From NCBI GenBank assembly GCA_022813865.1, contig JALDZX010000009.1, positions 124,001 through 188,000 on the forward strand: 64,000 nucleotides of DNA, given 5' to 3'. Every line of letters starts with the position of its first letter. Within the stretch, counting starts at the first letter, position 1. Source of the DNA: Xylographa opegraphella. Its lineage: Eukaryota. A program made the position numbers and the translations under genes. The notes below the pieces were generated by a model, which was not told the DNA's origin, did not search any database, and was given only the letters and a program-made list of their open reading frames with translations. Positions 8,410 to 10,194 of this stretch are shown here, in pieces.

Positions 8410-10194
8410 TCAGCTTTTATCGGTTCCTTGTTGACCCCCCGTCAATCGCCTCAACATCAACACCTCATGCTTCGTGACAAAGACGCCATTTCCTGCCGGC
8501 CCTCCAATAGATTCTTTTGGAGTCCGTTCCCCAGTCGTAGAGGCTGACAGACTCAGCGCGTCCATCATGTTGCGAACTTTGCCCCCTTCCCAATCACCGT
8601 TGCCGTTTGTCCAGAATACGCGTTTGATACCGACCGTGTGCATGTAGCAGATGCAACGATAGCAGGGTCGGGAGGCACCAACACAAGCCCGCTCAGCTTC
8701 TGGTCTTCCTAAGTCTGAAGGCGGCGAGTGCGCAGGCAGAAGAAGCTCGTTGTAAAGTGATCCGGTGGAAGGTACAGGCTCCGGCTTCGGAATAGTGCCT
8801 GTGCTTTCAATGACTCGACATACAGTGTCCTTAGGGTCGTCAGTATTATCGGGCTCAATTGGCAATACTATAGGTCCGTTAGTCTTTCTCCACCCAAGCC
8901 GAGCGACGTAGAGGTCTGCGCCTCGAAGGCGGGAATCTTTCATCCTATCAACAACAGAATGAGCTTTAGAACCTGTATGAGCACGAGGAAGCAGGAGAGT
9001 TGGAGGGGTTTTCGAAAGATTTCCAGATAGTGGTGGAGCAGTATCATCCTACGAATTATAATGTTAGCTCAAATGCCACTGGAAAAGGATATTTTGTGTT
9101 CGTACATCTGAAAGCGTTTTCAGCGGGATACGCTTAGTAGTATACTTAAAATCGCCCTTGAGAGTGGACTGTGCTTTCCCGGAAGTGAAGAAGCAAGAGT
9201 TCGAGATAATCGCATTCTGACCTTTAGGTCGGCTGTATGCATGTCGTTGTCCATGTTGTCCCGGCTCCTCCTTGTGGTGGTGGACAAGACTTTGATGTCC
9301 CTCCTCGCACTTATACCTATAGTGCTTCTGTACGTAGACTTTGTCCGCATTCTTCCATGAAGGCGCCCTCACCTTCTGGTTCTCTTCCTTGCGTTTCTCC
9401 GCGTTGTAGCCAGTGCTTCCGTTGATTCCGTTGCACTCGTTGTCCTTGACGGCGTTTAGGTGGAGTCCCTTCAAAGCGCAACTGTTGAACCTGCGACCCG
9501 CCACCGCATCGCTTGCCACGGGTCTCATGTACGGGGCCGGTCTGCTCACCGCAGATGGCTTCGACGTACGCTTTGAGGCCTCGTAAACGTAGCTGTCGTT
9601 TACCACCAGCCGGTAGTTTGAAGCACGGTTTAACCAATCACCGTGCAGACCGGGCGGAACCATGAGACGCCAGTGTGCTGGACATTGACAAAACGGAGTG
9701 AATTGCCCTAACGATGAAAAATAAGTAAATGAGACACAAGACTTACCTGAGATTTGATTTAACATCCCTTCTACTTACATCATCTCGGAATGCATTGACA
9801 ATGGCTGATTGACCAGACGACCACCGCCACCTGAGCGGTCCGAAGCGGTACTTTCGAAAGGGGTGAAAGTAGAGGTAGAGGCAGATCCAGGGTCTTCCTC
9901 ATCAGTGTTCTCAATAAAAGCACTCTCCTGATATGGCTTGGACTTGGGGACATTCTTCTGCTTCTGCTTCTGCTTTTGCTTTAGAGCAATGATAGCAGGG
10001 CTATTCGAAGCGCTACAGGCTGGCAGCTTCCCGGTCTTGAGAGCACCACCGTTGTAACCTGGACGGTATTCATTGTAGCCGTGACCAATGACCTTGCCAC
10101 CGCTGGCAATGATACATCCATGACGGTAATGGAGGGAGGACTTGGATGCCTGTTCTAGGCACAGAGAAAGGTATGAGTCACTTCGAGGAGCCAT
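8410..10194 (-). CDS. Zn-dependent cytidine/dCMP deaminase-fold protein requiring a +1 frame change in exon 2
   Basis: N-terminal YRHGCIIASGGKVIGHGYN and SMHSEMMAI (HxE); C-terminal LRGADLYVARL and SRPCYRC...GIKRVFWT (PCxxC); introns 9708-9778 and 9049-9105. Confidence 0.8.

Follow-up and report, generated by a model that had tools for sequence, protein, structure and literature searches.

A conserved +1 frame offset divides a zinc-deaminase gene of Pezizomycotina, with programmed frameshifting as a possible explanation

We analysed a stretch of 64,000 nucleotides (nt) from the lichen-forming fungus Xylographa opegraphella (assembly GCA_022813865.1, contig JALDZX010000009.1, positions 124,001 to 188,000; hereafter the window), and in it a gene on the minus strand, at 8410-10194, that appears to be the ortholog of a CMP/dCMP-type (PF00383) zinc-deaminase gene widespread in Pezizomycotina. 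The two halves of the zinc site of this gene, an HxE motif and a PCxxC motif, lie in different reading frames. An earlier note made from the sequence of the window had proposed that they need a +1 change of frame to be joined, and this was borne out by comparison: the same +1 offset between the frame of the HSEM motif (frame 0) and the path through an HLN motif to the C-terminal half (frame +1) was present in all 50 non-identical relatives, which speaks against a chance event in one species. The offset looks ancient and appears to be maintained by selection. As its cause we tentatively favour an ancient programmed +1 frame change during translation, which we regard as possible rather than probable.

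The relatives were collected from metagenome contigs. Eighty related loci were fetched, 67 of them had the HSEM motif and at least 450 nt downstream of it, and 50 of these were distinct, so that the alignment with the window comprised 51 sequences. In each of the 50 relatives frame 0 holds the peptide KPCFKLP..KR.ARLRR..L..YVE.VC..GK.QVQ, and frame +1 holds ..RFKSAVL(K/N)..HLNQV...AFH..EKH... It is frame +1 that runs on to the C-terminal half, in locus L061 by way of a canonical 50-nt intron (GTAAGC..CACAG); a stop in this frame is resolved by a short intron in 31 loci, and in 15 loci the frame runs on stop-free. A search for the same offset in relatives from Pezizomycotina had been suggested in the earlier note, with strain-specific pseudogenisation as the outcome to be expected if orthologs were continuous in one frame; no such ortholog was found among the 50 relatives. 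Since the orthologs are not single-frame and share no canonical intron (see below), the offset looks like a selected, ancient feature of recoding or processing. No un-annotated open reading frame (ORF) containing both halves was present among the protein-search matches listed, where un-annotated ORFs reached at most 372 residues on the N-terminal side and 433 residues on the C-terminal side. This is weakly consistent with fused messenger RNAs (mRNAs) being rare or absent. No contig resembling complementary DNA was recognised among the 80 loci, each of which has either the downstream intron or a continuous frame.

Between the two motifs the coding signal passes from one frame to the other, and the following elements of the window are needed to describe the passage:
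9608-9631, minus strand: block 1, conserved at all three codon positions; KPCFKLP in frame 0, NRASNYR in frame +1
9613-9619, minus strand: site 1, AAA-CTA-C, a rare NTA codon in frame 0 and a Tyr codon in frame +1; candidate hungry-codon +1 shift site
9551-9601, minus strand: B2, encoding the basic frame-0 peptide KRQLRLRGLKAYVEAIC; ratios of non-synonymous to synonymous differences (pN/pS) in frame 0 of 0.27, 0.57 and 0.46
9583-9589, minus strand: site 2, CGT-TTA-C, an NTA codon with Tyr in frame +1, within B2
9491-9550, minus strand: variable linker that separates the coding signal of frame 0 from that of frame +1, stop-free in both frames
9470-9490, minus strand: block 2, GTTCAACAGTTGCGCTTTGAA, conserved at all three codon positions; FNSCALK in frame +1, VQQLRFE in frame 0
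9454-9462, minus strand: HLN motif of frame +1, with variation that is synonymous in frame +1 only

Column and amino-acid entropies gave a clean frame-0 wobble pattern up to the codons preceding KPCFK and a clean frame +1 pattern at HLN, where CAY CTC AAY varies at frame +1 third positions only and the four-fold sites of frame 0 are invariant. The pN/pS values among close relatives, computed in 10 clusters, were as follows:
Upstream region: 0.17 in frame 0, 1.70 in frame +1 and 1.96 in frame +2, with pS in frame 0 of 0.352
Block 1: flat in all frames, with pS in frame 0 of 0.063
B2: 0.27 in frame 0 and 0.94 in frame +1
Linker: about 0.84 in frame 0 and about 0.84 in frame +1
Block 2 through HLN: 1.74 in frame 0 and 0.24 in frame +1

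The deeper comparisons gave 0.57 for frame 0 of B2 and 0.47 for frame +1 of the block 2 region in 18 Dothideomycete-like sequences, and 0.46 and 0.69 for the same frames and regions in 11 lichen- or Leotiomycete-like sequences, including the window. The coding signal thus appears to switch from frame 0, which is followed through 9601-9551, to frame +1, which is seen by 9490-9454. At deep divergence, the frame +1 codons TAY-CGN-GTN of block 1 vary synonymously only, and the frame-0 residues encoded there vary; many four-fold sites of frame 0 between blocks 1 and 2 are fixed, as are, by frame 0, several four-fold sites of frame +1. This reads as selection on about 45 codons in both frames, or at the RNA level.

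Both frames are open over about 130-150 codons. Frame 0 is stop-free before reference position 300 in 49 of the 50 relatives, and frame +1 is stop-free between reference positions 79 and 400, again in 49 of 50; upstream of position 79, seven sequences have frame +1 stops at 31-76, besides a near-universal TGA at position 10. Frame +2 contains many stops in all sequences. The exception in frame 0 is L070, which at 574-900 has TAG and TAA where its relatives have CAG/CAC and GAA/CAA; the C-to-T changes resemble those of repeat-induced point mutation, and PCHGC replaces PCYRC, so that L070 is probably a decaying paralog or a dead copy. The exception in frame +1 is L075, with stops inside the interval B1-B2 and common codons in place of the rare NUA codons. 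At L075:2052-3600 the N-terminal half lies on the plus strand, and the C-terminal half, with PCYRC, follows about 500 nt further downstream in the opposite orientation, so that the contig must contain an inversion or be wrongly assembled. We considered this locus as a counter-example to an open frame +1 and set it aside: with its C-terminal half inverted on the contig, the gene is not intact.

After block 2, frame 0 stays open for another 65-110 codons in most loci. In synonymous shuffles of frame +1, 2-5 frame-0 stops were expected there, and the probability of none was 0.001-0.05 in most loci, in a test biased in favour of this result by an interval that is set by the first stop. In most loci the frame-0 ORF has its end at one aligned position (around reference position 486, as ...I/L/M-C-V/A-stop). 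This shared end is a by-product of a conserved motif of frame +1, PS(V/A)S(K/S), whose TCT-AAG/AGT codons create the stop.

On the explanation that we favour, the two halves would be brought together in translation, through programmed +1 ribosomal frameshifting that may occur at rare NUA codons. Two products would be made, a short frame-0 protein, consisting of the N-terminal half and the basic tail KPCFKLP..KR..RLR..YVE.VC, and the full trans-frame deaminase. That the change of frame takes place on the ribosome, and where it does so, we infer from the sequence comparisons. A hungry-codon shift, possibly at more than one site, would be the preferred mechanism, because yeast Ty-type +1 shifts work on this logic: the codon in frame 0 is rare, and the +1 codon that follows it is common. 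The best candidate signals would be the blocks at 9631-9608 (with AAA-CUA-C) and at 9490-9470, and a second NUA-C site would lie at 9589-9583. At site 1 the frame-0 codon is CTA, TTA or ATA, with Tyr in frame +1, in 46 of the 51 sequences, and at site 2 an NTA codon with Tyr in frame +1 occurs in 41 of 51. Where these genes are coded in one frame only, CTA and TTA together make up only 12.5% of the Leu codons, and AAA makes up 24.7% of the Lys codons.

Several observations speak against a ribosomal shift of this kind. A classical slippery heptamer is absent, and no heptamer is invariant across the 51 sequences; the codon preceding the rare codon varies (AAA, AAG, UCC or GAA), as does the codon directly before block 2. 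The search for conserved RNA structure returned an empty RNAalifold consensus on four windows of the alignment, and Rfam gave two chance-level matches only. Blocks 1 and 2 can pair over 11-12 base pairs, with z down to -3.1, in one Dothideomycete-like subgroup, but this pairing is not general (median z -0.56, no covariation). Signals of frame +1 type (block 1) and of frame-0 type (B2) alternate, and therefore more than one site, or true dual coding, must be assumed. The conserved signals, as far as the alignment indicates, do not define the exact shift point. In the window itself an in-frame TGA of frame 0 stands upstream of the conserved candidate sites, so that the family mechanism alone cannot rescue this copy. 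Finally, there are two possible signs of splicing at the transition. Loci L019 (3398-3446) and L025 (its own positions 145-193 after the HSEM codon) have a candidate 3n+1 intron, GTGAGT...CAG, of 43/49 nt, and the public model P0188 of Zymoseptoria tritici is joined as REKP|PRQAQASGRFKS (PRQAQ...), as if an intron started at the GT of block 1.

These two signs would be accounted for by unconventional or regulated splicing, in which a 3n+1 intron with weak signals (an 'exitron') between blocks 1 and 2 would be retained to give the short frame-0 protein and removed to give the full deaminase, the blocks being splice-site and enhancer sequences. We consider this unlikely. The frame-0 constraint in B2 and the open frame 0 downstream of it would suit a translated retained-intron isoform, and the commonest GT/GC..AG pair of length 3n+1 over all column pairs, found in 34 of the 51 sequences, combines the GT of block 1 (5ʹ site GTGCTT) with the AG of block 2. 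However, this GT is absent from the other 17 of the 51, which look otherwise intact, and the 5ʹ sites (GTGCTT or GTCGAG) lack the G at +5 that is present in 27 of the 31 real introns of the same genes. Moreover, across the stretch that would be spliced out, frame +1 is open and under partial constraint, the YRV and DY(D/E) codons varying synonymously. No GT..AG intron of length 3n+1 with a consensus 5ʹ site and branch site was shared across the 51 sequences. The best candidate of this length per locus that leaves both frames clean scored at least 6 on a simple splice scale in only 9 of 51, mostly beyond HLN; as a control, the genuine downstream intron reached this score in 23 of 31. The L019/L025 lineage is the only one with a canonical-looking intron at the transition from frame 0 to frame +1, and its removal would drop the conserved YV..VC. 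By our reading of the alignment, the last frame-0 motif (..V-C) and the first frame +1 motif (F-K-S) are separated by exactly 31 nt in 13 loci, a gap that could not accommodate a spliceosomal intron without loss of sequence that has coding signal. The annotated models disagree on where the halves are joined and use no fewer than five different positions: besides P0188, the Z. brevis model is joined after ..GQWQ, that of Dothistroma after YVAAV and that of Sphaerulina after YVKA, the X. trunciseda model reads frame 0 to ..RLRSL, and the AIHS.. helix is missing from the models of X. pallens and X. bjoerkii. Loops of the HAC1/IRE1 type, U12-type sites and an antisense ORF were also tried, by eye against the known consensus and from the ORF list, and none fitted.

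The remaining alternatives concern the copy in X. opegraphella, whose other features in the window are:
9779-10194, minus strand: exon 1, with the ATG at 10194-10192 and the N-terminal deaminase half; it ends ...MHSEM+AT at 9779, in phase 2
9708-9778, minus strand: intron 1, 71 nt, GTAAGT..TTAG
9641-9707, minus strand: frame-0 continuation AIHSVLSMSSTLASHGSARSAR, the remainder of the HxE helix, conserved in frame 0 in relatives
9661-9663, minus strand: ATG of frame +1 (MVPPGL), start of the public gene model P0121 of 398 residues
9638-9640, minus strand: in-frame TGA of frame 0, in the context CGG-TGA-T
9593-9641, minus strand: candidate 49-nt intron GTGATT...ACAG, of length 3n+1 and with weak signals, which would give a 535-residue protein
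9317-9319, minus strand: first frame-0 stop (TAG) past the TGA, which would end the short frame-0 product given readthrough of the TGA
9106-9469, minus strand: remaining frame +1 coding region, a low-complexity insert
9049-9105, minus strand: intron 3, 57 nt, canonical (GTACGA..CTAAC..TAG), with equivalent canonical introns in relatives
8410-9048, minus strand: last exon, with GADLYVARL, PCYRC, KRVFW and VFVTKHEVLMLRR, and the stop TGA at 8412-8410

On re-reading, exon 1, intron 1, the TGA at 9640-9638, the +1 frame, the 57-nt intron and the last exon were all as the earlier note had placed them, as was the spliced length of 1657 nt (3n+1) obtained without further change. Frame +1 is stop-free over 9774-9064, and frame 0 is open again after the TGA for 106 codons (9637-9317). 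At the position of intron 1, no intron occurs in the 50 metagenome relatives used, which read HSEMMAIHS without interruption; this intron appears to be confined to part of the deaminase family. It contains a second GTAAGT 31 nt inside, a tandem 5ʹ site. In exon 1 there is an (AAGCAG)n-like microsatellite (window 9955-9990, minus strand) that encodes KQKQKQKQK and varies in length among Xylographa proteins.

The TGA is private to the window (1 of 51 aligned sequences). Eight sequences have TGG at this codon, and the rest have TCN, TGC, TAC or TAT (Ser, Cys or Tyr), some of them from a shorter, differently aligned group. The protein of X. trunciseda (P0002) has Trp here (SARSARWL), and those of X. 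pallens and X. bjoerkii (P0001 and P0003) probably have NGG, judging from their frame +1 peptides ..GGW... In this species a change from TGG to TGA lies seven codons upstream of site 1. Since frame-0 coding signal extends through B2 in the family, the TGA cuts across the path used ancestrally. The earlier note had taken frame 0 beyond the TGA for a mere off-frame read; this was wrong, as it is the conserved family peptide KPCFKLP..KR..RLR..L..YVE.VC, with frame-0 signal through 9601-9551. Of the mechanism proposed there, the +1 change of frame holds for the whole family, but the stop-dependent, antizyme-like site is not conserved, the other sequences having sense codons. In this species the full enzyme would be made only if the shift took place at or before CGG-UGA-U, or if the stop were read through; otherwise the copy would be defective. 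With a shift at CGG-UGA-U, about seven residues would be exchanged and the long frame-0 product would be lost.

The copy could indeed be broken, with the TGA as a recent nonsense mutation, or as a base-call error at 9638, and a 165-residue stub as the only product, a possibility that we take seriously while judging it somewhat unlikely. It would agree with the privacy of the TGA, with Trp in congeners and with a family frame-0 coding signal that extends beyond this codon, and L070 is a precedent for dead copies with stops. The public protein that is 100% identical to the last exon, 'hypothetical protein MMC26_001869 [Xylographa opegraphella]' (P0121), begins at the frame +1 ATG at 9663; therefore the annotators could call the second half only, as the +1 ORF from this ATG. 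On the other hand, the gene has no damage apart from the TGA. The last exon is intact, with 75% identity to the X. pallens protein, and so is frame +1, which is open from 9774. Stop codons in the ribosomal A site are, besides, known to stimulate +1 shifting. A repair by splicing that is specific to this species appears improbable. The change from TGG to TGA would have turned GTGGTT into GTGATT and so created the 49-nt intron 9641-9593; its excision would eliminate the stop and lead into frame +1, for the 535-residue product listed above. A 3n+1 intron that removes the TGA had been foreseen in the earlier note, and such a candidate does exist, with GT..AG borders, a typical fungal intron size, a clean reading and a mutation that improves position +4 of the 5ʹ site. 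Its signals are poor, however, as there is no G at +5 and, by eye, no CTRAY-like branch site; in L001 and L010/L011 this GT and AG belong to ordinary frame-0 codons, within a stretch with frame-0 coding signal, and the intron would delete the conserved KPCFKLP..KR peptide. Least credible of all, to the point of being very improbable, is a split enzyme, the two-polypeptide alternative of the earlier note, in which the HxE half would end at the TGA and the PCxxC half would begin at the +1 ATG at 9663 by reinitiation or on its own transcript. This ATG overlaps the end of the first ORF and is the start of P0121, but a +1 ATG occurs at the aligned position only in the window and 1 of the 50 relatives, and 27 of the 50 have none in the first ~330 nt. 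Both halves, moreover, model as a single CDA domain, in a low-confidence model.

The identity of the enzyme rests on the following. The protein search with the N-terminal exon, against a protein set of 5.8 billion, gave 250 proteins at E up to 0.001, and family members among the best 120 of these 250 came from Xylographa, Trapelia, Pleopsidium, Candelaria, many Dothideomycetes, and some Leotiomycetes and Sordariomycetes, all lichen-forming or other Pezizomycotina. Culturable relatives with this gene layout include Zymoseptoria tritici, Fulvia fulva, Hortaea werneckii and Cladosporium. The HxE motif, HSE(M) at 9792-9781 (HSE at 9792-9784), has an invariant H and E and a nearly invariant S in an alignment of 20 sequences, and the PCxxC motif, RPCYRC in the last exon, is invariant in 24 of 24 aligned homologs. 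With a cut-off of 25 bits for Pfam PF00383, the homologs P0033 (30.1 bits), P0012 (36.4) and P0188 (25.7) lie above it, and exon 1 of the window alone is a weak match (14.2). The closest solved sequence is dCMP deaminase 4p9c (E 0.0024). The structure model of the homolog P0033 is poor, with a mean predicted local distance difference test score (pLDDT) of 48.6; it is confident for the N-terminal strands, for the helices that carry HxE and PCYRC and for the ADLYVARL strand, and the long insert between the zinc motifs, of about 250-290 residues, is modelled as disordered. The top structural matches of this low-confidence model are CDA-superfamily enzymes over residues 15-446, with 3dmo at a Z of only 6.3, a root-mean-square deviation of 4.9 and 94 aligned residues. 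Since the matches span both halves, the HxE and PCxxC halves are predicted to form one deaminase domain.

Compared with known systems, the gene shows likenesses and differences. In yeast, Ty1/Ty3, ABP140 and EST3 undergo hungry-codon +1 frameshifting, in which a rare frame-0 codon is followed by a common +1 codon. Here, similarly, a rare CUA, UUA or AUA is followed by a base that gives a common +1 UAC or UAU, conserved at two sites; the heptamers, however, are unlike those known, and the rare codon is not preceded by a fixed codon. In antizyme the shift site is a UGA followed by U, with GAU as the +1 codon. The window junction has the same UGA and U, giving +1 GAU, and the ORFs likewise overlap partly at +1, but the stop is private to the species, the overlap open in both frames extends over those 130-150 codons instead of a few, and no 3ʹ pseudoknot was found by RNAalifold or in the test of block 1-block 2 pairing. 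We know of no link between this deaminase gene and polyamines, unlike antizyme. The antizyme gene (OAZ) uses programmed +1 frameshifting (PMC1874602). The closest case by taxonomy is PaYIP3, a cellular gene with one mRNA and two products, whose frameshifting is conserved across Pezizomycotina over about 400 million years (PMC3777964; review PMC5009743). Its shift is -1 in most cases, where a slippery run is accompanied by a pseudoknot, and a +1 configuration occurs in Capnodiales and Ophiostomatales (PMC3777964; PMC5009743). PaYIP3 resembles our gene as a cellular frameshift gene of the same subphylum and differs in that here the change of frame falls inside the catalytic domain, between HxE and PCxxC, and comes with no conserved structure: neither RNAalifold nor the duplex test (the median z given above) revealed a slippery run followed by a pseudoknot with compensatory changes. 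With the CDA-superfamily deaminases (PF00383; dCMP deaminase 4p9c and 2w4l; cytidine deaminase 3dmo) the gene shares HxE and PCxxC, the Pfam match of its homologs and, in the low-confidence model, the fold matches, and it differs from them in the insert between the zinc motifs and in a domain coded in two frames.

A full-text search of the literature found no account of this gene or feature. To our knowledge, conserved cellular +1 frameshifts are rare in eukaryotes, the cases being antizyme, a few yeast genes and PaYIP3. The fullest version of the explanation that we favour, which we regard as doubtful taken as a whole, would be a case of ancient recoding across several classes of Pezizomycotina, in which one gene gives two proteins through a +1 shift at NUA codons, with the doubly constrained and doubly open codons counted above. 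A potentially mutagenic deaminase of nucleic acids or nucleotides would thereby be kept scarce or conditional, and in X. opegraphella a version with a stop codon, lying a few codons upstream, would have taken the place of the shift site.

The public gene models of the family are inconsistent, being truncated, skipping the HxE helix or containing invented tiny introns, and a corrected model is needed for any study of it. If frameshifting is indeed the cause, a deaminase whose catalytic domain contains a change of frame that several fungal classes have retained would be a new case, and its signals would be unusual; the reason for gating the enzyme would become directly testable in culturable relatives.

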